Translations under genes and position numbers: made by a program
NCBI GenBank assembly: GCA_043767805.1
Contig: JAYUGC010000087.1
Coordinates: 1 to 64,000, forward strand
Source: Pseudomonadota bacterium
Lineage (GTDB): Bacteria; Bdellovibrionota; FAC87; UBA2466
Direction: 5' to 3'
Length of the DNA: 64,000 nucleotides
Shown: one piece after another, positions 32,015 to 63,442 of the stretch
Numbering within the stretch: position 1 is the stretch's first letter
How the letters are laid out: every line of letters starts with the position of its first letter
The notes under the pieces: generated by a model
Told to the model about the DNA's origin: nothing
Databases searched by the model: none
Seen by the model: the letters and a program-made list of their open reading frames with translations, nothing else

Positions 32015-32212
32015 CGAAAAAGGGACGCGGGCTGTTGAATGATTCCCCGTCATTTAACCGCTTGCCGGGCCAAAAGTAAAACGAGTGGCGTGCCGTCTTT
32101 GGCGCTCCGGGACAAGAATTGTCACCGCTCTTGCAGAGCCGGTCCTGGCTCGTGAGCGTGGGACGACTGGACTTGGTTTTGCACAAGTCCCCTCCTGGAG
32201 AGGTAGGGTCTC

Positions 32213-34512: not shown

Positions 34513-35628
<1,116 letters not shown>

Positions 35629-44314: not shown

Positions 44315-44451
44315 TTAAGCTCTCTAGTTAAGGCTGGAGAGAGCGAAATGGGAAGCAAAACTATGCAGATAAGCCATCAAAATGGAGGAAAATCCGCGCC
44401 GGGGAAAGGCCCGGTTTGCGCTTCGGTCCTCCAACCGGTAGAAGCGCGGTA

Positions 44452-45081
44452 ATGCCCACCCTTTCCGAAGCAGAGTTGACCGGAATCTCGGCTCAAACCA
44501 TCCGTCATTACGACGATTCCGCCGAGGCGTTTTGGCAGGGCACGAAGGATCACGACGTCACCCAGAACTACGAGGCTCTTTTGGGGGCGCTTCCGGGGAA
44601 GGGGCCTTTTCAGATCCTCGATTTTGGCTGCGGCCCCGGAAGAGATCTGGCGTACTTCAAGCGCCTGGGCCATTTTCCAACCGGGCTCGACGGAAGCATC
44701 GAGTTCTGTATGCGGGCTCTCGCCTCCACCGGCTGCCCGACTCTCCCGCAAGATTTTCTCAAGCTGACCCTGCCGGCCGGCGCCTTCGACGGGATTTTCG
44801 CCAATGCCTCCCTTTTTCACATACCGAGCCAGGAGCTCACGCGCGTTCTCGGCGATTTGAGACGCGCGTTAAAGCCGAAGGGAATTCTTTTTTCGTCGAA
44901 TCCGCGAGGCACGGGCGAAGGGTGGAACGGCCCGCGCTATGGCAATTACATGGAGCTCCCGGCTTACGAGACTTACCTTCGGCAGGCGGGCTTTCGCGTG
45001 CTCCATCACTATTATCGTCCCCAGGGACTTCCTTGCTCGGCCCAGCCCTGGCTCGCAGTCGTCAGCCGGTCAATTGAGTGA
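44452..45081 (+). CDS. Class I SAM-dependent methyltransferase
   Basis: ILDFGCGPGRD, FDGIFANASLFH. Confidence 0.9.
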   Translation: MPTLSEAELTGISAQTIRHYDDSAEAFWQGTKDHDVTQNYEALLGALPGKGPFQILDFGCGPGRDLAYFKRLGHFPTGLDGSIEFCMRALASTGCPTLPQDFLKLTLPAGAFDGIFANASLFHIPSQELTRVLGDLRRALKPKGILFSSNPRGTGEGWNGPRYGNYMELPAYETYLRQAGFRVLHHYYRPQGLPCSAQPWLAVVSRSIE

Positions 45082-47785: not shown

Positions 47786-48646
47786 GTGAAAATATCGCAA
47801 CGTCTCGCTTCTCTTTTGGCGCTAGCCGCCGTCTTGTTTTCAACTTCGTTAAAAGCGGAAGGAAGGGTTTATCCCACGTCGGATTTGAACGATCCTCTGG
47901 CCAATAAGGAACGCCGGGACGTTTCTTGGGGCGGAGTGCAGTGCGCGGTGAACACCCTGGTCCTTACGCTTTCGGGCGGGACCATCGCCGCGGCTCTCAC
48001 TCCCGACATGAGTAACCTTCTCTTCGGCCTCATCCGAGAGGAAATCGAAGCGGACCCAGCGAGCTTCGCGCTGCCCATGCCGATTGGTCAGCTTCAAGAC
48101 GCGTTTCATCTTTTACTCGAGCGGGTCTCCCAAAACCCGGGCCTCATCGCCAATACCGCCCTGGTCACCTTAATGAGCAAAGGCGGGGGACCTGGCGCGA
48201 TGGGGGGCATGAAACTTTTCTCCGACATCGCCGTCATCCGCACGCTCGCCGAATGCGGCATTACTTTGTATCGGGGCGTCGTTCAGCTTTCCAAAGACAT
48301 CCCGGCTCTCGTCAAAGACGTGAAAGCGATGCGGGCGAGTCAGATCGCGCTTAACCGCCGTTGCGCCGACTATGAAGGCTATACGGCTTGTAACCGAAAC
48401 TGTCTGGGCACCCGGCCCGCGCTGGAACGCTGGATTCCGAATTGCTCCCGCCACACGGACGCTTACCCCGAGGCTTTGAACGAAATCGCGGTCGGCCTGT
48501 TGCGAGCCTGTCATCAGGATTTCTGCGCGAGCCCGCGGCACCGCTGGAACCAGAAAAAGCTGCAGTGTCGCCTTGATGGAGTATCGGCCGAAGCGCTGGG
48601 TGGACGTCGCACGTCAGCTTGTTCGCGCATTTCGGAGTCCGCGTGA
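47786..48646 (+). CDS. Secreted hypothetical protein with Cys-rich C-terminus
   Basis: AGGAGG RBS, signal peptide, about ten Cys mostly in the last third. Confidence 0.7.
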   Translation: MKISQRLASLLALAAVLFSTSLKAEGRVYPTSDLNDPLANKERRDVSWGGVQCAVNTLVLTLSGGTIAAALTPDMSNLLFGLIREEIEADPASFALPMPIGQLQDAFHLLLERVSQNPGLIANTALVTLMSKGGGPGAMGGMKLFSDIAVIRTLAECGITLYRGVVQLSKDIPALVKDVKAMRASQIALNRRCADYEGYTACNRNCLGTRPALERWIPNCSRHTDAYPEALNEIAVGLLRACHQDFCASPRHRWNQKKLQCRLDGVSAEALGGRRTSACSRISESA

Positions 48647-48830
48647 AGCGCGCGGGCGGCAGCCTTTCGGTTGGCGGCGGGCAATCGCTGCAGGGCACTT
48701 CGCTCACGGTTCCGGGAGACACGTCTTCCGCGGCGTTTTGGCTCGCGGCCGGCGCCATCGTCCCCGGCGCGAAAATTTCCCTCTCCAATATTTTGCTCAA
48801 TCCCACGCGCACCGGCTTCTTCAAAGCTTT
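48619..48830 (+). pseudogene. aroA: Internal fragment of EPSP synthase
   Basis: FAHFGV...LTVPGDTSSAAFWLAAGAIVPGAKISLSNILLNPTRTG matches the AroA VPGDxSSAAF and LNPTRTG motifs; only about 70 codons; boundaries approximate. Confidence 0.8.
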
Positions 48831-49228
48831 GGCATGGTCTAGCGCCCAAAAACACGCTCCCCGCCCCCTGTTGACGAATTTGTCCACAGCAAACATACGC
48901 GCCGGGCCATTGATCGTAGCTGCGACGCGTTAATTCAGGTAAAAAGAAGGCGCTGAATTTTTTAAAAAAGCGGGCAGGGGCTAGTAAGGCCTTCTGCCCT
49001 TATTTATGCAAATTTTTTAATAATTTCGTTGAGGTAAGTAGTGTCCCACCCGTCAAATTTACAGAAAATTTGTCCCATGACGGCGGGCATTAACTCCCAG
49101 CAAACAGAGTTGGAACACTTAGTCCTTTTGGCCGGCCAAGCCCCTTGCCTCGGCACTTCGCGTTATGCGAAAAACACCGGACTTTTTTCGAAACCGATCC
49201 TATTTTCTGCTCACTCAGGGAGTTGTAC

Positions 49229-50350
49229 GTGACGCCGCCCACACCGGAACTAGTTCGCCAGAAGATCCATCACCAACGAGTTTTGCGGCAGGATCCGCTT
49301 TCCGCCCCCCAGACCATCGTTAACGAGCTTCCCGCGACGGCGGAAGACTTGAGCTTCGTCAACAACGCGCGTGAGTCCATTCAGAACGCGCTACTCGGCG
49401 GCGATTCGCGCCAGCTTCTGATTTTGGGCCCGTGCTCGATTCACGATAGGGAAGCCGCTCTCGAGTACGCTGACCGGCTTTCGCACTTGCAACCCCGGGT
49501 CTCGGAACACTTTCAGCTCATCATGCGCGTGTACTTCGAAAAGCCGCGCACCACGGTCGGCTGGAAGGGCTACATCACGGATCCGCACCTGGACGGCTCG
49601 GACGACATGGAGATGGGCCTGCGCAAAGCGCGCGAGCTCCTCTTGAAAATCACGCGCATGGGTCTTGCTTGCGCCACCGAGTTCCTCGATCCCATCGTTC
49701 CGCCTTACATCGCGGACTTAGTTACGTGGGCCGCCATCGGCGCCCGCACCACGGAAAGCCAGACCCATCGCCAGATGGCGAGCGGCCTTTCCATGCCGGT
49801 GGGCTTTAAGAACGCGACCGACGGAACGCTCCGCTCGGCTTTGAACTCGCTGCTCTCCGCGCGCCAGGCGCACACTTTCCTCGGCATCGACCCGAACGGC
49901 CGCACCGCCATCGTGCGCACCGCCGGCAACCCCGATGTGCATCTCGTGCTTCGCGGCAGCGAAGAGCAGCCGAACTACTCCGGTCCGCACATGGCATACG
50001 CCATGGCCGCCATTGGGACCTCCGGCCCCAGCCGCCCGATTCTCGTCGACTGTAGCCACGGCAACAGCAAGAAAGATTTCCGCCGCCAGGCCGATGTGTT
50101 CGACGACATCATCGATCAAGTGAACCGCGGCAACGAGCGCATTCTCGGCATGATGCTCGAAAGCCATCTTTTCGAAGGCCAGCAGAAGCTGACCGCTCCG
50201 AACACCCTGAAGTACGGCGTGTCCCTGACGGACGGTTGTATCAGCTGGGAAGCGACCGAACAGCTCGTGCTGCGGGCCTGCGATTCGCTCGCCCGCGCGA
50301 AACACTCGACGCGCCTGGAGTTCATGAACGGTCCCGGAGAGATGCCATGA
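49229..50350 (+). CDS. DAHP synthase, class I-alpha (AroF/G/H type)
   Basis: GPCSIHD, RVYFEKPRTTVGWKG, AIGARTTESQTHR, GFKNATDG, DCSHGNS, YGVSLTDGC; GTG after AGGGAG. Confidence 0.95.
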   Translation: MTPPTPELVRQKIHHQRVLRQDPLSAPQTIVNELPATAEDLSFVNNARESIQNALLGGDSRQLLILGPCSIHDREAALEYADRLSHLQPRVSEHFQLIMRVYFEKPRTTVGWKGYITDPHLDGSDDMEMGLRKARELLLKITRMGLACATEFLDPIVPPYIADLVTWAAIGARTTESQTHRQMASGLSMPVGFKNATDGTLRSALNSLLSARQAHTFLGIDPNGRTAIVRTAGNPDVHLVLRGSEEQPNYSGPHMAYAMAAIGTSGPSRPILVDCSHGNSKKDFRRQADVFDDIIDQVNRGNERILGMMLESHLFEGQQKLTAPNTLKYGVSLTDGCISWEATEQLVLRACDSLARAKHSTRLEFMNGPGEMP

Positions 50351-51357
50351 AGATCCTCATCGTTGGCGCCGGCGGCGTCGGCATGACGCTCGCGGCGCTC
50401 CTTACGGACGAGAAGCATTTGGTCAGCGTCATCGCGCGCGATCGGCACGTGAGCCGCATCCGTAAGCAGGGCATCCAGCTTTGGGGCTCCCTCGGCACGA
50501 TCTCGGCTCAGCCGGACCGCGCCGAAATCGTCGCCCGCGATCTTCCCGAAGAAGACTACGACTTGGTTCTGCTCACGGTGAAATCTTTCGATACCGCTTC
50601 CGCCATTTCGGCCTGCGAGCGGCTCATCGGACCGCGCACCACCATCGTCTCCGTGCAAAACGGCCTCGGTAACCTCGAAGCCATCGAAGCCATCGTCGGG
50701 CCCACGCAGCCGATCTTCGGTTGTGTCGCGCTTTTCGGCTGCGAGATCAGCGCGCCGGCCACCGTGCACATTTCGAGCTCCACTTGCGAAGCCAAGCTCG
50801 GGGCTTTCGGCCGCGCGGCGAGCTCTGGGCGCGAAGCTGCCGACAAACTTGCCGCGGCTCTGTCCGAAGCGGGCTTGAAGACCGTCGTCTCCGAGACTTT
50901 CCTGACCGACATGTGGGTTAAATTCATCATGAACACCATGACGAACGCCCTCTCCGCGGTGGAAGGCAAGACCCTCGCTGAGCTTTTCTCCGATGAGCGG
51001 ACCGTGACCACCATGGACGCACTTCTGGAAGAAATCTTTCCGGTGGCCGAACAGGTCGGTGTGCCGTTGCCGTGGCCCAGTCCGGCCGAGTTTTTGAGTT
51101 TCTATACGGCGAACATTCTTCCTCGCTTTGCAAATCACCGCACGTCCATGTCGCAAGACCTGGCGCACGGCCGCCGCACCGAGATCAGTGCTCTGAACGG
51201 GCATCTCGTAAAGCTCGCGCGTGATTTCAATACGCTTACGCCGGTGAATGCGTACCTCACCAATTTGGTTCAGAAGAAAGAGAGGCTCACCGCTTACCCC
51301 GTACGGTCCAAAGTCGCGACCGCCGGGAAACTTCGGACGGCGCAATATGCCGTATAG
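50347..51357 (+). CDS. Ketopantoate reductase family (PanE/ApbA) 2-keto acid reductase
   Basis: IVGAGGVG, LTVKSFD, VQNGLG, WVKF..N, TSMSQDL..GRRTEI..LNG; ATGA overlap with DAHP synthase. Confidence 0.9.
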   Translation: MKILIVGAGGVGMTLAALLTDEKHLVSVIARDRHVSRIRKQGIQLWGSLGTISAQPDRAEIVARDLPEEDYDLVLLTVKSFDTASAISACERLIGPRTTIVSVQNGLGNLEAIEAIVGPTQPIFGCVALFGCEISAPATVHISSSTCEAKLGAFGRAASSGREAADKLAAALSEAGLKTVVSETFLTDMWVKFIMNTMTNALSAVEGKTLAELFSDERTVTTMDALLEEIFPVAEQVGVPLPWPSPAEFLSFYTANILPRFANHRTSMSQDLAHGRRTEISALNGHLVKLARDFNTLTPVNAYLTNLVQKKERLTAYPVRSKVATAGKLRTAQYAV

Positions 51358-53410
51358 TTCGGATCACCCACGAGGCGACGAGCCCAAGACGCTCGTCGAA
51401 ATCCTGGGGCGCGCCGCGCTTCGTTTTCCGGAAAAGGGCATCACGTTCCTCGGCAACACTTCCGCCGAGAACAGGGCCGTGTCTTACGCCGCGCTTTGGG
51501 AAACGGCTGGACGTTGGCTCGCGGGCCTGCAAAAACAGGGCTTAAAGAGCGGCGATCGCGTGCTCTTCCAGCTCTCGGACAACGCCGACATGTTGACGGC
51601 TTTCTGGGCTTGCGTGCGGGGAGGGCTCCAGCCTCTCATCGGGCCGCTCGCTCCTTCTTACACGGAAGCGAATCTCGTCCTCGATCGCTTGAAGCACTCC
51701 TTCGGGCTCATGGAAGCTCCGGTACTCTTGACGCGCGAGTCGCTAGTCTCGTCGGTATCGCGGCTAACGGGCGGCAAGGCCGCGACCTTGACCATAGAGA
51801 CTTTGGAAATTGAAACGGCGGTGGCGCCCGCGTTCCGGCCTTCGCCCTCGGCTCCGGCTTTCTTCGTGCTTTCCTCCGGTAGCGGCGGAAAGACCAAGTG
51901 CGCGATCCTGACGCACGAAAATCTCATCGCGGCCCAAACCGGAGCGAACGTGAAAAACGGCCATACCTCCGGCGACGTCATCTTCAACTGGCTGCCCTTC
52001 GATCACGTCGGGGGCATGACCGACTGGCATCTGCGTCCCATGCTCCTCGGCTGTAATTTGGTGTATGCCCCCAAGGAGCTCATCATGAGCGCTCCTTTGA
52101 GCTGGCTCGATCGCATGGAAGGGTTCGTCGTAACCCATAGCTGGGCGCCCAATTTTGCTTACCTCGCCCTCGATCGCGCTCTCGATGAGGCGGGCGATCG
52201 CAAATGGGAGCTCTCGACCGCGCGTTTCCTACTTAGTGTCGGCGAGCCCATCGCGTACCGGGTGATCGAGTCCTTGAGCAAGAAGCTCGCGCCCCATGGG
52301 CTCCGCCCGTCGGCTTTGCGCGCGGCTTGGGGCATGACGGAGCTTTCCGGCGGCACGACGTACTCTTCACCCATCGAAGGCAGCCTTGCCAAACGGCACA
52401 CGGTGAACCGGCACGCGCTCGCGGCCGCTCACGTCCGCACGGTAGCGCCCGAGTCGCCGGATGCCGTGACGCTTCTCGATTTGGGGGGCCCCATTCCCGG
52501 CGTTTCCATTCGCATTGTGGATCCTCAAGGTAAAATCCTCGGGGAGAAAAGCGTCGGCCGAGTCGAAGTCGGCGGACCGGTGGTATTTCCCGGTTACTTG
52601 AACGATGCCGAAAGCACCCGCGCGGTACTTACGCCGGACGGCTGGTTCGATACGGGCGACATGGGTTACCTCGTCGACGGAAGCCTCGTGCTCGCCGGCC
52701 GCGAAAAAGCGATTCTTATCATCAACGGACAGAAGTTCTATTGTAACGACGTCGAGACCGCGGCCGAAGGCGCGCCCGGCGTGCGGCTATCCTCGACGGC
52801 AGCTTGCCTTGTCCGCACGGGAGACCAGTATGAGCGTCTCGCGATTTTCTTCGTTCCCAAAGACACGGAAACCGACGTGCGCACTATGGCGAGAGCCATC
52901 TGTGAACGTCTCACCCGTGAAATTGGCGTGACGCCTGAGCGCGTGATTCCGCTCGCGCCCCACGACGTGCCTAGAACCGCCATCGGCAAGATCGTGCGTC
53001 AGGAGCTCGTATGGCGTTATGCGGCCGGTCGTTATGAGAGCCTCCTCTTACAGGGCTCGGATCTGGTGGCTCGCCGTACGACGGGAACTCGCCGTCTCGA
53101 AGATCTCTCTCCCGTGGAAAGAGGGCTCGCGCGCCTCTGGCTCGAACTGCTCGGCGCGGGCGATCTCGCTCCGGACGATGATTTTTTCCGTCTCGGCGGC
53201 AATTCTCTTTTGGCGACTCGTCTCGTCGGTAGAATTCGTAAAGTATTCAACGTTGAGATGACCATAGCTTCGATCTTCCAGGCCCCCACGCTTTCGGGCA
53301 TGGCGAAAGCCATCCAGCAGAAGGAGGCGTCGAAGGGCCTCACCGAGAAAATTGCGTTCCTTTTGGATCGCATCTCCGCGGGACCCCAGGCGCAGGCGGC
53401 CCGCGTATGA
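51347..53410 (+). CDS. Adenylation-thiolation (A-T) loading didomain
   Basis: SSGSGGKTK, NWLPFDHVGG, WAPNFAY, WGMTE, WFDTGD, PRTAIGKI; carrier FFRLGGNSL. Confidence 0.9.
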   Translation: MPYSSDHPRGDEPKTLVEILGRAALRFPEKGITFLGNTSAENRAVSYAALWETAGRWLAGLQKQGLKSGDRVLFQLSDNADMLTAFWACVRGGLQPLIGPLAPSYTEANLVLDRLKHSFGLMEAPVLLTRESLVSSVSRLTGGKAATLTIETLEIETAVAPAFRPSPSAPAFFVLSSGSGGKTKCAILTHENLIAAQTGANVKNGHTSGDVIFNWLPFDHVGGMTDWHLRPMLLGCNLVYAPKELIMSAPLSWLDRMEGFVVTHSWAPNFAYLALDRALDEAGDRKWELSTARFLLSVGEPIAYRVIESLSKKLAPHGLRPSALRAAWGMTELSGGTTYSSPIEGSLAKRHTVNRHALAAAHVRTVAPESPDAVTLLDLGGPIPGVSIRIVDPQGKILGEKSVGRVEVGGPVVFPGYLNDAESTRAVLTPDGWFDTGDMGYLVDGSLVLAGREKAILIINGQKFYCNDVETAAEGAPGVRLSSTAACLVRTGDQYERLAIFFVPKDTETDVRTMARAICERLTREIGVTPERVIPLAPHDVPRTAIGKIVRQELVWRYAAGRYESLLLQGSDLVARRTTGTRRLEDLSPVERGLARLWLELLGAGDLAPDDDFFRLGGNSLLATRLVGRIRKVFNVEMTIASIFQAPTLSGMAKAIQQKEASKGLTEKIAFLLDRISAGPQAQAARV

Positions 53411-54648
53411 AGCAAAAGCCGGTCGTCTTCCGCAATTTCGATTTTCTGCGCCTTTGGCTCGGCCAGATCCTGAGTCAGTCCGGCACGCGCATGTATCAGA
53501 TCGCGGTCGTCTGGTGGCTGGTGACCTCCTCGCGCGCCGACTCCGGCAAAGTGGCCGCGCTCTTTCTCGTCCTTTGCGCACTTCCCGGCGTCCTTTTCTT
53601 AAAAGGAATCGGCCGAGTCGTCGATACCTACCGCACCCGTAGCGTGCTTCTCGCGGCGGACGGTTTGAATGCCCTCGTTGTCTTGTCCCTCTCCGCGATC
53701 CTTTATCGGTGGCCGGGCGTCCACGTCGGTGTGGTTTACGCCTGCGGCTTTCTCATCTCGCTCTTACAATCGATTACCGATCCCACGCTGACCAAAGCCG
53801 TTCCGGAAATCGTCGCTCCCGAGGACATTGAAAGCGCGACCGCCTTCCAGACTTCGACCATTTCGCTCGGTTATTACCTCGGTGCGGGGGCGGGCGCGTT
53901 TCTCATCGCTGCGCTTCACACGCCGGGAGTCATCGCCGTCAACGGGCTGACCTATCTGGCGTCCTTCCTTCTGGTTTTGTTCTCTCGTTTTCAGTACGCG
54001 CCTCCGGCACGGCCCCCCGCTACCGCCGAGAACTTGAGTGTTTCCGCTTGGAAGTACCTCGAGAAAAAGCCGCTCTTTAAGAAGCTTCTCATCGGCATGG
54101 GCTTTGCGAACTTCTTCTGCGTGCCGACGTTTTTGATTCTCCCCATCTACGTGAGCCGCGCCTTGCACGCGGAAGCATCGACGCTAGCTTGGATTGAGTC
54201 CGGCCTTTGGCTCGGCATTATCGCCGGCACCTACCTTTCCCGTAAGTTTCGTTTCACGGAGGATCCGGAGCGGCTCGGTGCGATTTGTGCTGTCGTGCTC
54301 GCTATCGGGCTTTTTGTTCCCGGCCTCTTCGTCAGCGTTCCGGTCTACTTCTGCATGATCTTCCTACAGGGCTTGGCCTTCTCCTTCATGCCGGTTCGGT
54401 TCATCCCGCTTTTTCATCAGGGCATTCCGCCCGAGATGAAAGGCCGGTTCTTCGCCCTCATGGGCTCGATCCTCACCGTCGCTCAGCCCATCTCGCATTT
54501 CGCGGCGGGAGCTCTGGCCGACGTTATGCCCGTGACGAACCTTTGTCTCATTCAAGGCGTTGGTACTTTGCTGGTGACGGCGTATTTCCTCGCTCCCAAG
54601 CCCGGTCCAAAGCCCGGAGCGCTCTCGGTGGGGACTGACCGTGGGTGA
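53407..54648 (+). CDS. MFS exporter (macrolide-efflux/EntS-like)
   Basis: DFLRLWLGQILS, GRVVDTY, about 12 TM, IPPEMKGR. Confidence 0.9.
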   Translation: MKQKPVVFRNFDFLRLWLGQILSQSGTRMYQIAVVWWLVTSSRADSGKVAALFLVLCALPGVLFLKGIGRVVDTYRTRSVLLAADGLNALVVLSLSAILYRWPGVHVGVVYACGFLISLLQSITDPTLTKAVPEIVAPEDIESATAFQTSTISLGYYLGAGAGAFLIAALHTPGVIAVNGLTYLASFLLVLFSRFQYAPPARPPATAENLSVSAWKYLEKKPLFKKLLIGMGFANFFCVPTFLILPIYVSRALHAEASTLAWIESGLWLGIIAGTYLSRKFRFTEDPERLGAICAVVLAIGLFVPGLFVSVPVYFCMIFLQGLAFSFMPVRFIPLFHQGIPPEMKGRFFALMGSILTVAQPISHFAAGALADVMPVTNLCLIQGVGTLLVTAYFLAPKPGPKPGALSVGTDRG

Positions 54649-57600
54649 GCTCGATTTCAATCTCGATGACGATCCGCTAGCGTTACTCAATGCGCTGCTT
54701 GCGGAAAATGCGGTGCCCACAAATCCTGGCATCCCGCTCCGTTTAAAATCGCCCGCCACCGCCGCGTCTTTCGCGCAACGCGGCCTCTGGTTCCTGAACC
54801 AACTGGACCCGGCGAACGCGGCTTACCACGTGCCTTTGATCTTCTCGATCGAGGGAGAGCTCAAGACGGACGTTCTCGCCAAAGCACTCGAAGCCTTGGT
54901 GCGGTTGAACGAGCCCTTGCGCACGGTATTTCGTCTCGAAGGCAGTGAGCTGCAACAAGTCGTACTCCCGGCGTTCTCCCCCGAATTAGCGCGTACGGAT
55001 TTGAGCGGGCTGACCAAGGAAGGCGCGGCCGCAAGCTTCCAGGCCCTCGCTTCTCGCTTAGGCGCCGAGACCTTTGATTTGGCGCGGGGCCCGCTGGTGC
55101 GCGCTAACTTCGTGCAAATCGAGCCGGGTAAACAAGCTTTGCTCCTGAATATTCACCACGCGGTCATCGATGCATGGTCGGGCGACTTGCTTTTCGCTCA
55201 ATTGATGGAGCTTTATCGTCGGCTTGAAGCCGGGCAGGCTTTACCTGAGATGGCTCTACTGCAGTACGCGGACTATGCGGAATGGCAGAGCACCGAGGAT
55301 AAAGACGGACGTTATGAGGCGTCTCTCGGTTATTGGAAAGCGAAGCTCGACGGCGTAACGCCGCTCGTTTTGCCGACCGACCGTCCGCGCGCGGGGGCTC
55401 GTAGCTCCAAAGGCGAGAAAGTCCGCTTCACGCTTCCCGCCGACATCGTTCAGAAACTGAACGAGCTCTGTCAGCGTGAAGGCACGACGCTTTTCGTCGG
55501 ACTTGTCACGCTCTTTAAGATTTTGCTTCACCGCCAGACCGAGCAGACGGATATCGTCATCGGGTCGGGAAGTGCCAGCCGCGGTACGCCGGAGCTCCTC
55601 GATATGGTCGGGCTCTTCCTGAACAACCTGGTGCTCCGCACCGATTTCTCGGGCGACCCTACGTTCCCCCAAGCTTTGGAGCGCGTGCGCTCGGTCGTCG
55701 TCGATGGGCTCAGCCATCAGGAAGTTCCTTTTGAAAAGATTCTGGGCGCGGTCGTCACCGAGCGCACCTCCGATCCCAACCCGCTCTTTCAGGTCGTCTT
55801 CACTTTCAATGAAAAGTCCGTACAGGAAGTCCGGCTTCCTTCGGCTTTAGTGACCCTTGCCGACCCGAACCTCGTCGAGGTTGGTTCGGCGAAGCACGAC
55901 CTCTCGGTCCATTGCTGGACGACGGGCGGCGCGGTGGAAGGTGTCTTCGAGTTCAGTCTCGATCTCTTCGATCGCGTTACGATCGAGGCGATGACCGCGC
56001 AGTTCGAGCGCATTGCCCGCCAAGCGGTGGACGGCTCGGCCCTTCCTGTCTCTCGCTACGAGCTGCTCGATCCGGCGGAGCGCGAAAAGATCTTAGTCGA
56101 ATGGAACCGGACGGAGCGCGCGGTTTCGGGCGAGACCTTTCTCGACGGTTTCTTGCGGTTCGCCCGTACGCAACCTGAGCTCGTCGCCGCGGTTTGCTGT
56201 CACGAGTCGCTTACCTACGGTGAGCTGCACGCAAAGAGCGATCGTTTGGCCGGCGAGTTAGTGCGCTTGGGCCTCACGCGCGAATCCCCGGTCGCGGTTT
56301 GTCAGGGCCGCACCACGGATCTTCTGGTCAGCTTCCTCGGCGTCCTCAAGGCGGGTGGCGCGTACTTGCCTCTCGATGCGGGCCAGCCGGCTCAGCGCTT
56401 AAAAGCCATGGTCGAGGTGGCGAAGCCTCACGTCGTGCTTTGTGACGCCGGAACGAGAGCACTCGCCGAACAACTTGGCGTGCCGGTTCTGTCTCCTTCG
56501 GAGCCGAGCCAAGGTTTGACCGAGCTTCCGCCTCCGCCGACTCCGGGTCAGCTCGCGTACGTCTTGTTCACCTCTGGCTCCACCGGAACTCCGAAGGGCG
56601 TCATGGTCGAGCACCGGTCGCTGGGTCACTTGGCCGACTGGGCGCGCGCGCAATACGATTTGAAACCGGGCGACCGGTGCGCGCTGCTCACCAATCTCGG
56701 TTTCGATCCCACCTTGGAAGAGCTTGCGGCTTATCTGTCGAGCGGCGTGACGCTTTATCTCGGTGGCGATCATTTACGTATTTCGCCGGACGAAATGCGG
56801 CAATGGCTCATCGACATGGGTATTACCATTTGTCAGCTGCCCGCGCCAATCTTGGAAACAATCGTTGATAAAGAGTTCCCGGCGAGTTTCCCGCTCCGTC
56901 TCTTTTTGACCGGCGGCGAACGGCTTCGCAAACGGCCGCACCTGAGCTCCCAGTTCGAAGTGGTCAATCGGTACGGACCCACGGAGTGCACGGTGTATTG
57001 CACGGAGCAACGGCTCACCCGTGTCGGCGACCGGCCTTTTTCCATCGGCCGTCCCATCGCCAATACCAAAGTTTATGTTTTGAATGCGCACCGCCAGCCG
57101 GTTCCGGCCGGCGTTAAAGGCGAGATATACGTGAGTGGCCTTTCGCTCGCGCGCGGCTACTGGAACGAGCCCGGCAAGACCGCGGATGCGTTCGTACCCG
57201 ATCCGTTTACCCCGGACGGCCGTTTGTACCGGACGGGCGATCTCGGACGTTTCACGAAGGACGGCGTTTTAGAGTTCTTGGGACGCGCGGACGGCCAGGT
57301 CAAGATTCGCGGCATGCGTATCGAGATCGGCGAGATTGAGACCGCCTTGAAGGCTTTCCCGGGCGTTAAAGACGTGCTGGTGCTCGCTCAGAAGCAAGCC
57401 TCCGGCGATTCGGCGCTGGTGGCTTACGTCATCTCGGACGAAGCCCAGGAAAACTCGTGGAGAACGTGGCTTCGCGCGCGATTGCCCGAGCCCATGGTTC
57501 CGGGCCGCTACGTTTCCCTGAAAATTTTTCCGCTGACGGCCAATGGCAAAGTCGACGTGCGAAAGCTTCCCGCTCCGAAGGAAGTTACCGAAGTTAGGGC

Positions 57601-57940
57601 GGTTTCCACCGCAGCTCCCGCCTCGGGAACGGCCGCGACTATCGCCCAAATCTGGGGCGAAGTGCTCGGCGGGACAAACTTCGGCACCGACCAGAATTTT
57701 TTTGATCTGGGAGGGCATTCTTTGTTACTCGCCCAGGTACAGAACAAGCTTGGAAAAGCCCTCCAGAGACCCGTCAAACTGACGGACCTCATCAAGTACC
57801 CGACGATTTCCGCGCTTGCGGAAGCCCTCGGGGGCGCCACTCCCGGAACGATCCGGAAGGAGCAAGCGGTCCTGTCCGACGCACGCCTTAGAGCGGAACG
57901 CCGAGCGAAGCTCTTAGGGTTAGGCGCCCGGGGCAAATAG
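54641..57940 (+). CDS. Single-module NRPS (C-A-T)
   Basis: SFAQRGLWFL, HHAVIDAWS, YADYAEWQ, FTSGSTGTPKG, YGPTE, YRTGD, NGKVD, FFDLGGHSL. Confidence 0.95.
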   Translation: MGELDFNLDDDPLALLNALLAENAVPTNPGIPLRLKSPATAASFAQRGLWFLNQLDPANAAYHVPLIFSIEGELKTDVLAKALEALVRLNEPLRTVFRLEGSELQQVVLPAFSPELARTDLSGLTKEGAAASFQALASRLGAETFDLARGPLVRANFVQIEPGKQALLLNIHHAVIDAWSGDLLFAQLMELYRRLEAGQALPEMALLQYADYAEWQSTEDKDGRYEASLGYWKAKLDGVTPLVLPTDRPRAGARSSKGEKVRFTLPADIVQKLNELCQREGTTLFVGLVTLFKILLHRQTEQTDIVIGSGSASRGTPELLDMVGLFLNNLVLRTDFSGDPTFPQALERVRSVVVDGLSHQEVPFEKILGAVVTERTSDPNPLFQVVFTFNEKSVQEVRLPSALVTLADPNLVEVGSAKHDLSVHCWTTGGAVEGVFEFSLDLFDRVTIEAMTAQFERIARQAVDGSALPVSRYELLDPAEREKILVEWNRTERAVSGETFLDGFLRFARTQPELVAAVCCHESLTYGELHAKSDRLAGELVRLGLTRESPVAVCQGRTTDLLVSFLGVLKAGGAYLPLDAGQPAQRLKAMVEVAKPHVVLCDAGTRALAEQLGVPVLSPSEPSQGLTELPPPPTPGQLAYVLFTSGSTGTPKGVMVEHRSLGHLADWARAQYDLKPGDRCALLTNLGFDPTLEELAAYLSSGVTLYLGGDHLRISPDEMRQWLIDMGITICQLPAPILETIVDKEFPASFPLRLFLTGGERLRKRPHLSSQFEVVNRYGPTECTVYCTEQRLTRVGDRPFSIGRPIANTKVYVLNAHRQPVPAGVKGEIYVSGLSLARGYWNEPGKTADAFVPDPFTPDGRLYRTGDLGRFTKDGVLEFLGRADGQVKIRGMRIEIGEIETALKAFPGVKDVLVLAQKQASGDSALVAYVISDEAQENSWRTWLRARLPEPMVPGRYVSLKIFPLTANGKVDVRKLPAPKEVTEVRAVSTAAPASGTAATIAQIWGEVLGGTNFGTDQNFFDLGGHSLLLAQVQNKLGKALQRPVKLTDLIKYPTISALAEALGGATPGTIRKEQAVLSDARLRAERRAKLLGLGARGK

Positions 57941-57967
57941 TTTTTTTGGTACGTTTTAGGGGATCTG

Positions 57968-60937
57968 ATGGACGGCGAGAGCAATTTGACGGGCGTGGCG
58001 ATTATCGGCATGGCGGGACGTTTCCCCGGCGCTTGCGATGTGAACGGGCTATGGCGGATGCTTGCCGAGGGAAAATCCGGCGTCACCATTTTCACCGATG
58101 AAGAGCTCAAAGCGGTCGGCGTTCCCGAAGATCGCTTTCAGTCCCCGGACTTCGTGCGCCGCACGGCTTTGGTCGCCGACGTCGATAAGTTCGATGCCGA
58201 GTTCTTTCAGTTCAGTCCCGGCGAAGCGGAAAAGATTGATCCCCAGCAGCGCCTCTTTCTCGAAGCGTGCTGGGCCGCCATCGAAGACTCAGGATACGAC
58301 CCCTTGGGTGGAAACCGCTCCATCGGTGTCTTCGCCGGTTGCAGCATCAACACCTATCTCCTTCAGAATCTTTTGCCGCGCATGGGCGCGGAGCTGAGCC
58401 TTTCGGGTCTTCAAGCCGGTATCGCGAGCGATAAAGATTTCTTGAGCACCCGCGTTTCGTACAAACTCAATCTCCAGGGACCGAGTCTTACCGTGCAGAC
58501 GGCGTGCTCGACGTCTCTCGTGGCGGTGCATCTCGCGATGCAGAGCCTTCTCCTCGGCGAGTGCGATATGGCGCTCGCGGGCGGCTCGTCGCTCCGCCCG
58601 AACACGCGCGGCTACCTCTTCGAAGAGGGCAGCATTCTTTCTCCGAGCGGCGAATGCCGCCCGTTCGATCACAAAGCTCAGGGCACCATTCCCGGTAACG
58701 GCGTCGGCGTCGTTTTCCTGAAGCGTCTCGAAGACGCGGTCGCCGATCGCGACCCGATTTACGCCGTCATCAAGGGCACGGCGGTCAATAACGACGGTTC
58801 CATGAAGATTGGCTACACCGCGCCGAATCCGGAAGGACAGGCCCGGGTCATTGCCGAGGCGATGGCGGTCGCCGGTATTTCCCCGGAGAGCATCAGCTAC
58901 GTGGAAACCCACGGTACGGGAACACCGCTTGGCGATCCGATCGAGATCGAGGCGTTGTCGCTCGCGCACGGCCAAGAAGCCATGTCCGCGTCGTGCGCGT
59001 TGGGCGCGCTGAAGAGCAACGTCGGTCACATGGACGCCGCGGCCGGTATCGGAGGGCTCATCAAGACGGCTCTGTCCCTTCATCATAAAAAGATCGCGCC
59101 GAGCGCCTATTTCGAAAAGGCGAATCCGAAGCTCGGCTTGGAGCAGACTCGCTTCTTTTTGAGTAACCAGCTCGCCGACTGGAACCACGGCTCGCTTCCC
59201 CGTCGCGCGGGCTTGAGCTCGTTTGGCATGGGCGGCACCAACGCGCACGCCATTCTCGAAGAGGCGCCGCAAGCCACGTTCTCGGCAAGCGAGCAGAAGA
59301 AACACGTGCTCGTACTGAGCGCCGCGAGTGAGGCTTCTCTCGACAGAATGACCCGCGATTTGGCGGTGTTCCTGAAAGACAATCCCGAGGTAAACCTCGC
59401 CGATGTCGCCTACACGCTTCAAGTGGGCCGTCATCCCTGGAAGTTCAGAAAAGTCGTGGCGGGAGCCACCGCGTCTGAAGTGCGGGAAGCCATCGAGCAA
59501 AGAGATCCGACGCGCGTCTTCACTCACACCGTGGGCGAAAAAGTGTCGACTGTATTCTTGTTCCCGGGGCAGGGCGCGCAGTACGCCGGCATGGGCCGTG
59601 ACCTCTATCAGGACGAGCCCGTGTTTCGGGCCGCCATGGATACCTGCGCGGAGTTCTTGAAGCCTTACCTCGATCTCGATTTGCGCAAAGTGCTCTTCGA
59701 GCAGACGGACGACGCGCGCGCCGCCACCACCTTCCTCGAGCAGACTTGGATTACGCAGCCTTCGCTTTTCGCCATCGAGTACTCCTTGGCTCAGCTTTGG
59801 AAGAGCTGGGGCGTCGAGCCCGAAGCGATGCTCGGCCACAGTGTCGGCGAGTACGTCGCGGCTTGCTTGGCCGGGGTCTTCTCCCTGGAAGACGGATTGC
59901 GTCTGGTCGCCGAGCGCGGTCGCTTGATCCACGCTTTGCCCGCGGGCTCCATGCTCTCCGTCAATTTGCCCGCCGAGGAAATTCCTTCCTATGCGTTGGC
60001 CGAGCTCGAAGTGGCGGCTATCAACGCGCCCAACCGCTGCGTCCTCTCGGGAGAGACGGCCAAAGTGGAAGCGGTGATTGAGAAGCTCACCGAGGCCGGC
60101 ATCGAGTGCCGAATGCTGAAAACCTCTCACGCATTTCACTCCGTGATGCTCGACCCCGCGCTACCGGCTTTCCTTAAAGTCCTTGAAGGCGTGAAGCTCT
60201 CGCCTCCCCAGATTCCCTTCCTATCCAACCTGACGGGAACTTGGATTAAGGCGGAACAAGCGACCTCGCCCGAGTACTGGGCGCAGCACGCTCGCCGCGC
60301 GGTCCGTTTTGGTGACGGCATCAGCACCTTGATGAAAGCCGCGCCTCGGCTCTTCATTGAAGTCGGCCCGGGCCGCACGTTGAGCGCGTTCACGAAGCGT
60401 CTGACCGACGCTCAGGTCTTCAATACTTTGCCGCATCCTCAGGAAACGTTCTCCGCCTCGGTCTGCGCCTTGAGCGCGTTCGGCCGGGTTTGGGCGACGG
60501 TGCCGGGCATTCGCCTGGAATCCCGGTACGAGAACGAAACGCGGTCTCGTCTCCATTTACCGACGTATTCTTTTGAGAAGAAGAAGCATTGGATCGACGC
60601 GCCTCTGGTGACTCAAGCGCCCGAGGCGCCGGTGCAAGTGCCGGTCCCTGTCGCGGCGGCCGTCGAAGTTGCGGGGGAGTGCCCTTTGAGCGAAGTCGAG
60701 CAACTCGTCTCCAAGGCCTGGAAGCAAGCGTTGGGCGCGACTCACATCGGCCTGCGCGATAACTTCTTTGAGATCGGGGGCGACTCCATGATCGCGACTC
60801 AAATCGTGAACTCGCTCAAACGCGATCTCGAGGTCGCTTTCCCCGTCGCGCTCCTTCTCCAATCGCAGACCATCCAGAAATTCGCGGTCGCGGTCGAAGA
60901 CCGCCTCATGATCGAGCTGGCGAGGCAAGAAGGCTGA
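57968..60937 (+). CDS. Type I PKS module (KS-AT-ACP)
   Basis: DPQQRLFLE, VQTACSTSL, HGTGT, KSNVGH; AT GHSVGE and HAFH (malonyl type); ACP FFEIGGDSM; no KR/DH/TE. Confidence 0.95.
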   Translation: MDGESNLTGVAIIGMAGRFPGACDVNGLWRMLAEGKSGVTIFTDEELKAVGVPEDRFQSPDFVRRTALVADVDKFDAEFFQFSPGEAEKIDPQQRLFLEACWAAIEDSGYDPLGGNRSIGVFAGCSINTYLLQNLLPRMGAELSLSGLQAGIASDKDFLSTRVSYKLNLQGPSLTVQTACSTSLVAVHLAMQSLLLGECDMALAGGSSLRPNTRGYLFEEGSILSPSGECRPFDHKAQGTIPGNGVGVVFLKRLEDAVADRDPIYAVIKGTAVNNDGSMKIGYTAPNPEGQARVIAEAMAVAGISPESISYVETHGTGTPLGDPIEIEALSLAHGQEAMSASCALGALKSNVGHMDAAAGIGGLIKTALSLHHKKIAPSAYFEKANPKLGLEQTRFFLSNQLADWNHGSLPRRAGLSSFGMGGTNAHAILEEAPQATFSASEQKKHVLVLSAASEASLDRMTRDLAVFLKDNPEVNLADVAYTLQVGRHPWKFRKVVAGATASEVREAIEQRDPTRVFTHTVGEKVSTVFLFPGQGAQYAGMGRDLYQDEPVFRAAMDTCAEFLKPYLDLDLRKVLFEQTDDARAATTFLEQTWITQPSLFAIEYSLAQLWKSWGVEPEAMLGHSVGEYVAACLAGVFSLEDGLRLVAERGRLIHALPAGSMLSVNLPAEEIPSYALAELEVAAINAPNRCVLSGETAKVEAVIEKLTEAGIECRMLKTSHAFHSVMLDPALPAFLKVLEGVKLSPPQIPFLSNLTGTWIKAEQATSPEYWAQHARRAVRFGDGISTLMKAAPRLFIEVGPGRTLSAFTKRLTDAQVFNTLPHPQETFSASVCALSAFGRVWATVPGIRLESRYENETRSRLHLPTYSFEKKKHWIDAPLVTQAPEAPVQVPVPVAAAVEVAGECPLSEVEQLVSKAWKQALGATHIGLRDNFFEIGGDSMIATQIVNSLKRDLEVAFPVALLLQSQTIQKFAVAVEDRLMIELARQEG

Positions 60938-61677
60938 TGCGGGCGGAAACCCACTTCGCCACCGCCGTTTCACCGCTCGCGTGGGATCGTTTTCCCACGA
61001 CCGATGGGGCGGATGAGATTCAGATCTGGCAGGTTCGCCTCGATCTCTCGGAGGCTTCGCTCGCGGTGGGATGGAGCTGGCTGAGTCTCGAGGAAAAGCA
61101 GCGCGCCGAAGCATTTCGCACGGAAGAGTTGCGCTCGCGTTTCGTGGCGGCGCACGGCGCGGTTCGCTATCTGCTCGCGAACGAGCTGGGCACCCGTCCG
61201 GAAACCCTCGAGTTCACCGAGACCGAGCGAGGAAAACCCGTGCTCGTGACGGCCGAGGGCCGGCTCCATTTTAATTTGGCTCATTCCGTCGATCGCATGG
61301 TGCTCGCGCTCTCGCCCTTTTGTCCCATCGGCGTCGACATCGAAGCGCTCGGCCAGGGTCCCATCGAAGACGGGCTCTTGGAGACTTGTCTCACGCCAAG
61401 CGAGCGAGAGTTCTTACTGGCCACGTCGCGGGACGTGCAGCGGGATCTCTTCATTCGGTTCTGGACGGCGAAAGAAGCCGTTCTGAAGGCGGAGGGTTCC
61501 GGCTTCTGGATCGAGCCCAGCCAGGTGGAAGTCGAGCTCGCAAGCGATCTCCTGTCGGGTAGGGCTATGATTTTCGCGGACGATAAGCCCAGCCGAGAGT
61601 TCACCGTGAACGCCCTGGATGTGGGTCCCGATTTCCGAGCGGCCGTGTCCGCCGCCCTCCCGTCCAACCAGGGCTAG
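60937..61677 (+). CDS. Sfp-type 4'-phosphopantetheinyl transferase
   Basis: GKP, FNLAHS, IGVDIE, FWTAKEAVLKA; TGATG overlap with the PKS. Confidence 0.93.
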   Translation: MRAETHFATAVSPLAWDRFPTTDGADEIQIWQVRLDLSEASLAVGWSWLSLEEKQRAEAFRTEELRSRFVAAHGAVRYLLANELGTRPETLEFTETERGKPVLVTAEGRLHFNLAHSVDRMVLALSPFCPIGVDIEALGQGPIEDGLLETCLTPSEREFLLATSRDVQRDLFIRFWTAKEAVLKAEGSGFWIEPSQVEVELASDLLSGRAMIFADDKPSREFTVNALDVGPDFRAAVSAALPSNQG

Positions 61678-61792
61678 GGCGGTTCTCCAGCAAATCCTTA
61701 CCGGCCTTCTGCAATAATGCGTTGAGTAATACGCCCTTCTTAAGTACGGTCTTTGAGATCCGTTCTTACCAGTCTTTTTTTTGGAGGGTTGT

Positions 61793-63442
61793 ATGATGAA
61801 GCTGTTTAATTTCGGTCTCTTATTGTCCATTTTGGCCTTTAGCGCCCAGGGCACGCCTTTGGTCGGTCGCTACCTCGTGGCGGGCGGCGGTTTCTATCCG
61901 GAGCATTCCGAAGTCGTTCTCGAAAAGAACGTGGAGCTCTTCCGGGAAACGGCGACTCTCTTCAATTTGCTCCCGTCGAACCTCTTCACTCTGTTTGCCT
62001 CGGGCACGGACACGACGATTAACGACGTTTCCATTCAGAATCCCGCGCTCGCGGACGAAGAGCTGCTCTTCTCCGTGAACTTCATCAAGGGCGGTCACAA
62101 GAACCTGACCCTCCGGCACAACAAGCTCCCGAATCTTCTCGGCAGCACGGAAGCGAAGCATTTGTCCCAGCAACTCGCCGACGCTTCTAAGGTAGCGTCT
62201 TCGACGGTGCCTTTCCGCTTCTATTACACGGGCCATGGCGCGTACGAGCGTCCGGCCCCGCCGCCTCAGACTCCGAATCCGTTAAACCTCTGGCGCCCTT
62301 TTTTTACCCAGTCTGACTCGGCTCTCACGGGCTCGACCCAGCGGATGTGCGATGCCGATATCCAGAGCGCCTGGGCCGCGAGCCAGCTCGACATTCCGGT
62401 CGCTTCCGTTTCAGCAGCGAAGATGACTCAGTATCGCAAGAACTACATGGCTCTGTGGAACAGCACCCAGATGAACGTCGAAGAGTATACGACTGCGCTC
62501 GACGCATTCCCGGCCGATGCTCCCATCCAGACCGTGATGGTTCAGTGCTTCTCGGGCGGTTTCGCTCAGATGAACTTCGTCAAAGGAGACGCCGGTGGCG
62601 CGGTCTCCAAAGCCAATCGCTGCGGCTTCTTCGCGACCGTTCCTTCTCGCGTCGCCGCGGGTTGCTCGGCCGACATCAATCAGCGCGAAGAGTACAGCCC
62701 GTACTTCCTCGCCGCCATCCGCGGTAAGACCGAGACTGGCCAGGCGGTGAACGCGGATTTCGACGGGGACGGCAAGGTCACCTCCGACGAAGCCCACGCG
62801 TACGTCATCTTGAACGAGCGCGCTTTGGATGTGCCCATCACGACTTCCAGCGCGTTGCTTCGCGAGCTCGACGAAGGCTTGCCCGAAATCGCCTTGAAGG
62901 CCGACTGGGCCTGGTACGAGCAACGCTTCACCAAGATCGAGCGCGCGGTCGTCGACGGTCTCTCCAAAGAGCTCGGATTCGACGCGACGAAGTTCAAGTC
63001 GCCGGTCACCACGATTCGCTCTCAGATCGTGAAGCTCTATGGCGCCCTGAATGCCGCTTCTCAGCAAGCGCAGTATGCGAGCGCGATATTCTCTCAAGGC
63101 TTGAGCCAGATCGTCGCGGAGACGCGTAAGGCCAATCCCATTCTCGATGCCGACTACGAAGTGATCACCAAAGACCCGGCTCGCGTCGCCGACGTGCAAA
63201 AGGCTCGGGATGCTTTCAAGGCGCACGCCCATTACGGCGATCTCTTGAAGCTCTACACCCAGCAGAAACAGCTGCAGGAACAGGCGGACAAGATCCAGCA
63301 CGTCATCGCGAAGGTGGAGCGCTTGGGTTATGCCTTCGAGACGAAAGCTCTGGAAGATTTGCTCGCAAACGCGGGTAACGCCGAGCTCACCGATAAGTAC
63401 CGCCAGCTCAAGGCTTGCGAGCACGAGCCTTTTTTCCGCTAG
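61793..63442 (+). CDS. Secreted caspase/legumain-fold (clan CD) peptidase-like protein
   Basis: Signal peptide; FYYTGHG (His) and MVQCFSGGF (Cys) dyad pattern; EF-hand-like DFDGDGKVTSDEA; helical C-terminus. Confidence 0.7.
   Translation: MMKLFNFGLLLSILAFSAQGTPLVGRYLVAGGGFYPEHSEVVLEKNVELFRETATLFNLLPSNLFTLFASGTDTTINDVSIQNPALADEELLFSVNFIKGGHKNLTLRHNKLPNLLGSTEAKHLSQQLADASKVASSTVPFRFYYTGHGAYERPAPPPQTPNPLNLWRPFFTQSDSALTGSTQRMCDADIQSAWAASQLDIPVASVSAAKMTQYRKNYMALWNSTQMNVEEYTTALDAFPADAPIQTVMVQCFSGGFAQMNFVKGDAGGAVSKANRCGFFATVPSRVAAGCSADINQREEYSPYFLAAIRGKTETGQAVNADFDGDGKVTSDEAHAYVILNERALDVPITTSSALLRELDEGLPEIALKADWAWYEQRFTKIERAVVDGLSKELGFDATKFKSPVTTIRSQIVKLYGALNAASQQAQYASAIFSQGLSQIVAETRKANPILDADYEVITKDPARVADVQKARDAFKAHAHYGDLLKLYTQQKQLQEQADKIQHVIAKVERLGYAFETKALEDLLANAGNAELTDKYRQLKACEHEPFFR

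Follow-up and report, generated by a model that had tools for sequence, protein, structure and literature searches.

Operon layout and genome context

This study concerns a 12.4 kb operon in a stretch of 64,000 nucleotides, hereafter the window (contig JAYUGC010000087.1 of assembly GCA_043767805.1, positions 1 to 64,000), from an uncultured Pseudomonadota bacterium of sediment, GTDB lineage Bdellovibrionota; FAC87; UBA2466. Seven genes on the + strand, at 49229-61677, encode a small hybrid of a nonribosomal peptide synthetase (NRPS) and a polyketide synthase (PKS), which probably starts from an aryl-2-keto acid. The open reading frame (ORF) listing and scans with Pfam and NCBIfam gave the order DAHP synthase, PanE/ApbA reductase, a protein with one adenylation and one carrier domain (A-T), a major facilitator superfamily (MFS) protein, an NRPS module with a condensation domain (C-A-T), a PKS with ketosynthase, acyltransferase and acyl carrier protein domains (KS-AT-ACP) and an Sfp-type 4'-phosphopantetheinyl transferase (PPTase). 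A first-pass annotation, made from the letters alone, had described seven co-oriented genes with overlapping ends and this same domain order, and the scans matched it exactly. The features, including two upstream of the operon, are:

48619..48849, + strand: relic of aroA (EPSP synthase), residues ~200-275, found by tblastn
48930..49228, + strand: AT-rich intergenic stretch, presumed promoter/leader, AGGGAG ahead of the GTG start (direct reading)
49229..50350, + strand: type I-alpha DAHP synthase, second copy (PF00793, 4.6e-78; TIGR00034, NF009395)
50347..51357, + strand: 2-oxoacid reductase of the PanE/ApbA (ketopantoate reductase) family (PF02558, PF08546, TIGR00745)
51347..53410, + strand: stand-alone 2-keto-acid-type A domain with carrier (PDB matches, class motifs, Pfam)
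53407..54648, + strand: MFS exporter, EntS/MFS_3-like (PF07690, MFS_1; PF05977, MFS_3)
54641..57940, + strand: NRPS elongation module C-A-T (Pfam Condensation, AMP-binding, AMP-binding_C, PP-binding)
57968..60937, + strand: minimal cis-AT PKS, KS-AT-ACP, predicted malonyl-specific (Pfam ketoacyl-synt N/C, Acyl_transf_1, PP-binding)
60937..61677, + strand: Sfp-type 4'-phosphopantetheinyl transferase (PF01648, ACPS; PF22624, AASDHPPT_N)

The likely starts are GTG at 49229 and 54641 and ATG at 50347, 51347, 53407, 57968 and 60937. Neighbouring genes overlap by 4, 11, 4, 8 and 1 nt, with a single gap of 27 nt, an arrangement of operon-like translational coupling. A promoter role of the AT-rich stretch can only be presumed: a consensus scan found no sigma-70-like site in it, and its counts of promoters and terminators did not exceed those expected from shuffled sequence, none of them being located at either end of the operon.

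The source genome (G000) is a bin of 204 contigs and 4.5 Mb, in which the window represents contig C87. A congeneric genome, G001, also carries the cluster; G005 and G014, used for comparison, belong to other genera of the family. In G001 the gene order matches, with 58-76% amino-acid identity, and its contig stops within the PKS gene.

Support for the region from sequencing runs consisted of metagenome contigs from three runs of one sediment-metagenome study at a low depth of ~5-9x, and a single contig (X1) covers 54145-62984. These contigs provide coverage that is not independent of the assembly. The runs that carried this DNA were the three DNA runs of that one study, with no RNA run among them. 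A joint skipping from 49636 to 53525, with a side of 20 letters on one low-depth metagenome contig, was treated as noise. Summed depth over 49204-49754 reached ~170-270x, compared with 5-10x elsewhere in the metagenome contigs, presumably because the conserved core of the DAHP synthase is shared with other organisms of the sample. The operon is a real, intact and orphan hybrid cluster.

The first adenylation domain belongs to the 2-keto acid class

The A-T protein has 687 residues and AMP-binding and PP-binding as its only Pfam domains; no embedded ketoreductase (KR) was detected in it by Pfam. In a comparison with the PDB, its A domain (A1) matched the A-KR-T protein StsA (6ULW) with 401 bits (8e-119) and the A-PCP didomain of McyG (4R0M) with 356 bits (3.5e-105), whereas the best fatty acyl-AMP ligase (FAAL) reached 149 bits (2e-42) and amino-acid A domains at most 93 bits. 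The Val in its motif PFDHVGG aligns with StsA I306 and McyG V227. According to PMC11253843, the I306 position of StsA corresponds to GrsA Asp235, which binds the alpha-amino group. A1 further carries the motif WGMTE, with Met at the position of StsA M415 where amino-acid A domains have the Pro of motif A5; G-M-x-E is invariant in all ten aligned members of the class. This class, distinct in sequence, has been named 2-keto acid AMP ligase (KAL; PMC13643306). On the grounds of the PDB scores, the Val at the Asp235 position and the WGMTE motif, the A-T protein can be assigned as a KAL-type loading didomain of the StsA/McyG/AerA class.

The NCBIfam models that fit the A-T protein best are those of long-chain fatty-acid ligases and FAALs, all far below their cut-offs, and their names had led to a reading of the protein as a FAAL of a lipopeptide pathway, which we dismissed in view of the PDB scores and the class motifs. 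The wider form of this explanation has a FAAL-ACP as first module, a lipo-amino-acid ketide as product, and the DAHP synthase and reductase as unrelated neighbours from primary metabolism. We regard it as highly improbable: besides 356-401 bits for the keto-acid/McyG class against at most 149 for FAALs, and the Val and WGMTE hallmarks, the reductase occurs only with the cluster, is translationally coupled to both of its neighbours, in G001 as well, and the DAHP synthase is a diverged extra copy.

The nine GrsA-equivalent pocket positions of A1, read from the alignment, are VGTWLVAGG, compared with VGVWVAASG in McyG and IGVWIGASA in StsA. A prediction of the substrate from these positions was tried and abandoned. 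Among 78 metagenomic relatives two codes dominate whatever the downstream context, with no sorting by that context, and the A1 code is unique to it, so that it predicts nothing. The aromatic specificity of A1 is drawn from gene context, not from a readable code.

The PanE-like reductase goes with the cluster

The start codon of the second gene of the operon overlaps the stop codon of the DAHP synthase gene, as ATGA. The product of this second gene matches PF02558 (1.1e-30), PF08546 (1.5e-26) and TIGR00745 (210 bits, cut-off 141), and its best PDB matches are ketopantoate reductases (KPRs; 4e-30), with which it aligns end to end. KPR sequences align with it at VQNG, WVK and SQD..GRRTE, stretches to which we attribute a catalytic role.

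Matches to the reductase were found in three of the 34 genomes of the family, namely G000, G001 (63% identity) and G002 (25%), and no paralogue was found in G000. On account of this distribution and the missing paralogue, we consider the reductase specific to the cluster and not the housekeeping enzyme of the family. Its distribution tracks the cluster, and a housekeeping role in pantothenate synthesis does not fit. Since the A-T protein is devoid of a KR and the reductase is confined in the family to the two cluster-bearing genomes, it probably fills the role of the missing embedded KR. A PanE-type reductase in an NRPS cluster was also sought in the full-text literature, with no relevant result.

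The DAHP synthase and a linked aromatic pathway

The DAHP synthase scored 437.8 bits against TIGR00034 (cut-off 173.2) and 478.7 bits against NF009395 (cut-off 343). The first-pass annotation had described it as the cluster's own. It is an extra copy: G000 has another DAHP synthase, 57-58% identical, at the usual aro locus on contig C91. There the gene lies divergently beside tyrA-aroA-aroE-aroC-aroK, as it does in G005 and G014. With the cluster copy of G001, the cluster copy of G000 shares 76-77% identity, and with the housekeeping copies 57-62%; among themselves, the housekeeping DAHP synthases of three genera share 64-73%.

In G001, tyrA, aroA, aroE, aroC and aroK lie directly upstream of the cluster on its own strand, and the encoded TyrA combines chorismate mutase II (CM_2) and prephenate dehydrogenase (PDH) domains. 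These genes stand apart from the housekeeping set: aroA identity is 63% among housekeeping copies and 55-58% to the G001 copy, the corresponding values for aroC are 72-73% and 68-70%, and the G001 genes are no closer to the housekeeping genes of G000 than to those of other genera. No other aro set was found in G001, a genome of 93% completeness.

A trace of the same operon is present in G000. The aroA relic spans ~76 residues, 380 nt upstream of the DAHP synthase gene, and is 64% identical to the cluster aroA of G001 as against 43-45% to the housekeeping aroA of G000 (C91), G005 and G014; to the full aroA of its own genome it is 43% identical. Further upstream of the cluster, G000 and G001 have no genes in common, which suggests that cluster and aro genes move together as a unit. 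The simplest reading of these sequences is that the cluster lineage carried an operon of its own leading from DAHP to 4-hydroxyphenylpyruvate, which would have moved with it, and that G000 would since have shed this operon apart from the DAHP synthase and the aroA relic. The pathway through a bifunctional TyrA ends in 4-hydroxyphenylpyruvate, which is a 2-keto acid and thus the kind of substrate expected for a KAL.

At the site that the aro genes occupy in G001, G000 has a Cys-rich ORF of 286 residues (47786-48646, + strand) with a signal-peptide-like start and no Pfam match, the 3' end of which runs into the aroA relic.

Chain elongation, export and release

The MFS protein is 69% identical to the product of the G001 gene at the equal position. 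In the C-A-T protein the C domain has an intact HHxxxD motif (HHAVID). The code of its A domain (A2), read by motif against LgrA and with GrsA numbering, is DPEQFTRVYK; it is identical in G001 and reads DPWYVTLVNK in the more distant homologue of G014. It is not known to match any assigned code, and its charged or polar residues at 239, 278, 322 and 331 are unlike those usual in the codes of aromatic (Phe/Tyr) domains.

A rival explanation has the KAL-type protein and the reductase making an aliphatic 2-hydroxy acid (such as 2-hydroxyisovalerate or 2-hydroxyisocaproate), while the DAHP synthase and the ancestral tyrA supply the C-A-T module with Tyr or Phe; such a product would be similar to the 2-hydroxyisovalerate-dolapyrrolidone end of dolastatin 15. 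PanE-family enzymes act naturally on branched 2-keto acids, and StsA, the best PDB match of A1, selects 2-ketoisocaproate. Dolastatin 15 likewise has the order 2-ketoisovalerate, Phe and malonate (PMC13643306). However, the score of McyG nearly equals that of StsA, and the cluster encodes no aminotransferase, whereas tyrA gives a keto acid directly. The polar residues of the A2 code at 239, 278 and 322 also argue against Phe or Tyr at this step, and we hold the aliphatic starter to be unlikely.

The PKS has the motifs QTACSTS, HGTGT and NVGH in its KS domain (Cys/His/His) and GHSVGEY and HAFH in its AT domain. HAFH, which the first-pass annotation had already read as malonyl-specific, was present in the translation, and we take it to denote malonyl-CoA. 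The PPTase matched best, below cut-off, to an NCBIfam model of HetI-like proteins. Three carrier GGxS sites are encoded in the operon. Pfam detected no KR, dehydratase, enoylreductase, thioesterase (TE), reductive release (R) or terminal C domain in the seven proteins. Since the PKS ends at its ACP, only 16 residues past it, the chain should stop as a beta-keto-acyl-ACP derived from an N-acyl-aminoacyl unit.

With no release enzyme in the operon and only a relic left of the linked aro genes, the cluster might be a decaying remnant that is no longer productive. Against this stand seven open frames with the KS Cys/His/His, the AT GHSxG, the C-domain HHxxxD and three carrier serines all intact, as well as intact frames in a conserved order in G001 at a protein divergence of 24-42%, and we give decay very little credence.

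Release might instead be achieved elsewhere in the genome. The sole strong match to a thioesterase family in G000 lies on a 7-kb contig, 3' of a partial C domain at the contig edge:

G000 contig C13, 5603-7055, and G001 contig C46, 6918-13834: second NRPS with TE

Only the C-terminal half of the condensation domain and the TE were assembled in G000. The G001 orthologue is a protein of 2048 residues, C-A(nMT)-T-C with an N-methyltransferase (nMT) insertion, followed by a stand-alone TE; the two are 88% and 60% identical to the G000 parts. This NRPS starts with a C domain, without a loading module. The operon could then be the front half of a longer line, its ACP-bound intermediate being passed to the separate C-A(nMT)-T-C protein and released by the terminal C domain or the adjacent TE. 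The missing release domain, the missing loading module of an NRPS next to the only strong TE of the genome, and the presence of both loci in G000 and G001 would all suit such a handover, and the lines for kasumigamide have a terminal C domain but no TE (PMC5061366). However, the two loci are on separate contigs in both genomes, the second NRPS has unrelated neighbours in G001 (an FG-GAP protein, a hydrolase and an HNH protein), the operon has its own PPTase and exporter like a complete unit, and co-occurrence in two congeners carries no weight. We consider the handover doubtful. The second locus nevertheless weakens the earlier description of the cluster as self-contained, which has become doubtful: the operon is without a TE, R or terminal C domain, and the only good TE lies beside another NRPS on a different contig.

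Distribution and novelty

Orthologues of the KAL-T protein were found in three of the 34 family genomes: G000, G001 (63% identity) and G014 (41%), where the gene lies directly upstream of a C-A-T gene on a 5-kb contig. The nine other family matches at E <= 1e-40 are 27-30% identical and FAAL-like. At E <= 1e-70, KAL-T was present in 3 of 401 genomes taken as a sample of the phylum, and the next best match after G001 in a collection of 5.8 billion proteins was 44% identical.

A search with the C-A-T protein, with one genome per species, gave 507 stretches, 450 of them relatives; the 77 loci kept, 33-39% identical, are generic NRPS modules. None of the 77 had a KAL, DAHP synthase or PanE-like neighbour, and those with KS-AT-ACP downstream are multi-kb megasynthases. 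The alignment of KAL-T against metagenomes yielded 78 loci of 32-42% identity, none with a DAHP synthase or PanE-like match in the available flanks. Two of the 78 show the order KAL..C-A..KS-AT, but leave ~2.4 kb between KAL and C, which could hold a KR-T. Full-text searches for literature on clusters in the presumed lineage gave nothing relevant. The gene set had initially not been recognised as a described cluster, and the genome and metagenome scans, from which the records nearest to G000 may have been excluded and which gave no close homologue, are in agreement with this.

Proposed pathway

We propose that the operon is an intact, vertically conserved and very narrowly distributed NRPS-PKS line with three carrier-bound steps and an aryl-2-keto-acid start, a proposal to which we assign an even chance. 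The stand-alone KAL-type protein would activate a 2-keto acid, most likely 4-hydroxyphenylpyruvate or phenylpyruvate, and load it on its own carrier. Supply of the acid would be raised by the extra DAHP synthase and would ancestrally have come from the cluster-linked tyrA-aroAECK. In place of an embedded KR, the PanE-fold reductase would convert the 2-keto to the 2-hydroxy acid, before loading or on the carrier. The C-A-T module would then add one amino acid to give an N-(aryl-lactyl)-aminoacyl thioester, and the KS-AT-ACP one malonyl unit to give the beta-keto-acyl-ACP. The three carriers would be primed by the Sfp-type enzyme and the product exported by the MFS protein.

The likely product is an aryl-lactyl (or aryl-pyruvyl) amino acid to which one malonate has been added. 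It may leave the line as an N-acyl tetramate. The most probable route would be lactamisation to an N-acyl pyrrolidine-2,4-dione, spontaneous or with a TE in trans; hydrolysis and decarboxylation to a methyl ketone would be the alternative. Domain content, A-domain class, the malonyl motif, gene coupling, distribution and the paralogy of the aro genes are observed; substrate identities, timing of the reduction and release chemistry are inferred. The aryl-pyruvyl or aryl-lactyl starter of the first-pass annotation was strengthened by the class of A1 and the cluster-specific reductase; its aromatic specificity comes from context. A more detailed version, in which the PanE-fold enzyme acts in trans on a carrier-bound aryl-pyruvyl unit, the product is a self-cyclised N-(4-hydroxyphenyllactyl) tetramic acid, and the aro-bearing block moved into a lineage otherwise without such chemistry, appears quite improbable to us as a whole.

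Several points weigh against the proposed aryl-2-keto-acid line. The A1 pocket VGTWLVAGG matches neither McyG nor StsA, and the aro linkage could instead provide Tyr or Phe for the second A domain. With G001 at 93% completeness, a housekeeping aro set may exist there and have merely escaped assembly. The operon has no TE, R or terminal C domain by Pfam, and the assembly line may be longer than the operon, given the second NRPS and TE in both genomes. Finally, the G000 bin has 2.8% contamination and a second, 94.6%-identical mreB; that contigs C87 and C91 come from one cell is probable, not proven.

If the proposal is right, a minimal line of three carriers that has its PanE-fold reductase as a free protein could serve as a compact and portable system for aryl-lactyl capping, easy to express at 12.4 kb. 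The relic and the paralogues also illustrate clearly how a biosynthetic cluster brought along an entire operon for precursor supply and later lost the greater part of it. Products of keto-acid-primed NRPSs, such as aeruginosins, kasumigamide, dolastatins and cereulide, include protease inhibitors, cytotoxins and ionophores. Orphan hybrid clusters are very common in metagenome bins, and nothing in the operon overturns known biosynthetic logic.

Other features of the window and its flanks

A methyltransferase of 221 residues that uses S-adenosylmethionine is encoded at 44416-45081 (+ strand), 4 kb upstream of the operon and behind a DUF2252 gene on the opposite strand. The 18 kb that precede the G001 cluster gave no match to it, and it is probably unrelated to the operon. 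Directly after the PPTase gene, a protein of 553 residues (61781-63442, + strand) has a signal-peptide-like start, no Pfam match, the stretches DFDGDGKVT, resembling a calcium loop, and QCFSGG, and no paralogue in the genome. Beyond the window, at 64059-66985 of contig C87, lie a weak TetR-like gene, a DUF4423 gene and a second MFS_3 gene (EntS-like) that runs off the contig end.

On the - strand, 35666-44314 encodes a protein of 2882 residues with two GH94 supersandwich stretches, a GH94 catalytic domain and a glucoamylase-like domain, presumably the architecture of cyclic beta-1,2-glucan synthases, and 28856-32053 one of 1065 residues with six IPT/TIG repeats and a Kelch beta-propeller. The mreB at 34513-35580 (- strand) and that on contig C64 (13668-14723) share 94.6% protein identity; either the gene was recently duplicated or the bin may contain two strains. 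The sole tRNA of the scan, tRNA-Thr at 808-879, is irrelevant to the cluster.

Comparison with known systems

A close likeness is that to the initiation of aeruginosin and kasumigamide synthesis. The A-KR-T modules of AerA and KasA load phenylpyruvate or 4-hydroxyphenylpyruvate and then reduce it (PMC10143770, PMC5061366), and selectivity for phenylpyruvate was measured for MakasA-A1 (PMC5061366). Both systems, like the operon, start with a keto-acid-class A domain followed by C-A-T, leading to an N-(aryl-lactyl) peptide, and kasumigamide shares with it a later KS-AT module and the absence of a TE (PMC5061366). The A-T protein of the operon, however, has no embedded KR of the short-chain dehydrogenase/reductase (SDR) type and is accompanied by a free PanE-fold reductase. 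The operon comprises three modules, without further NRPS modules and without the hallmarks of aer clusters, namely an AerA-type A-KR-T, the Choi genes aerD/E/F and a terminal R or C-A-T-R; neither KR nor R was detected by Pfam. Its sequence identity to any relative found beyond G001 is at most 44%.

The terminus of dolastatin 15 is built by Dol15D-M2 (KAL-KR), Dol15E, the PKS-TE Dol15F and the O-methyltransferase Dol15G, which turn a hydroxy acid, Phe and malonate into a pyrrolidinedione, with the TE proposed to close the ring (PMC13643306). A KAL-selected 2-keto acid that is reduced, one amino acid, one malonyl unit and a possible closure to a pyrrolidine-2,4-dione are common to this pathway and the one proposed for the operon. 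An internal hydroxy acid that forms an ester, a KAL in a five-domain module, cyclisation by a TE and the O-methyltransferase are particular to dolastatin 15; the operon has neither a C-terminal TE on its PKS nor a partner O-methyltransferase.

McyG (4R0M) and StsA, of the cereulide type (6ULW), resemble the A-T protein in having a hydrophobic residue for Asp235 and Met for the A5 proline. McyG is fused to a KS-AT-containing PKS, whereas the A-T protein stands alone and feeds a C domain; it is the KR-less didomain of McyG that it resembles. StsA forms ester bonds and, like AerA, KasA and CrpD-M2, carries an embedded KR, which the A-T protein does not.

Bacillaene synthesis uses glycine at its amino-acid step. 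Its loading module for a keto acid is devoid of a KR, and, as proposed for the operon, the starter is reduced by another enzyme and followed by an amino acid and a malonyl unit (PMC10999986). Bacillaene, however, is made by a large trans-AT system, in which a downstream SDR KR domain performs the reduction. In the bacterial examples checked, the reducing KR sits inside the module or is borrowed from a PKS. A free enzyme of the ketopantoate-reductase family is the fungal ketoisovalerate reductase, which makes the 2-hydroxy acid for the enniatin and beauvericin synthetases. These differ from the operon in being fungal, in their aliphatic substrate, in an ordinary A domain that takes the hydroxy acid and in the lack of a PKS step.

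The logic of a keto-acid starter, an amino acid and one malonate is thus already known from aeruginosin and kasumigamide initiation and from the terminus of dolastatin 15. What sets the operon apart from them is its stand-alone, KR-less KAL-T, its free PanE-fold reductase, its partly decayed aro supply and its ending without a release domain.

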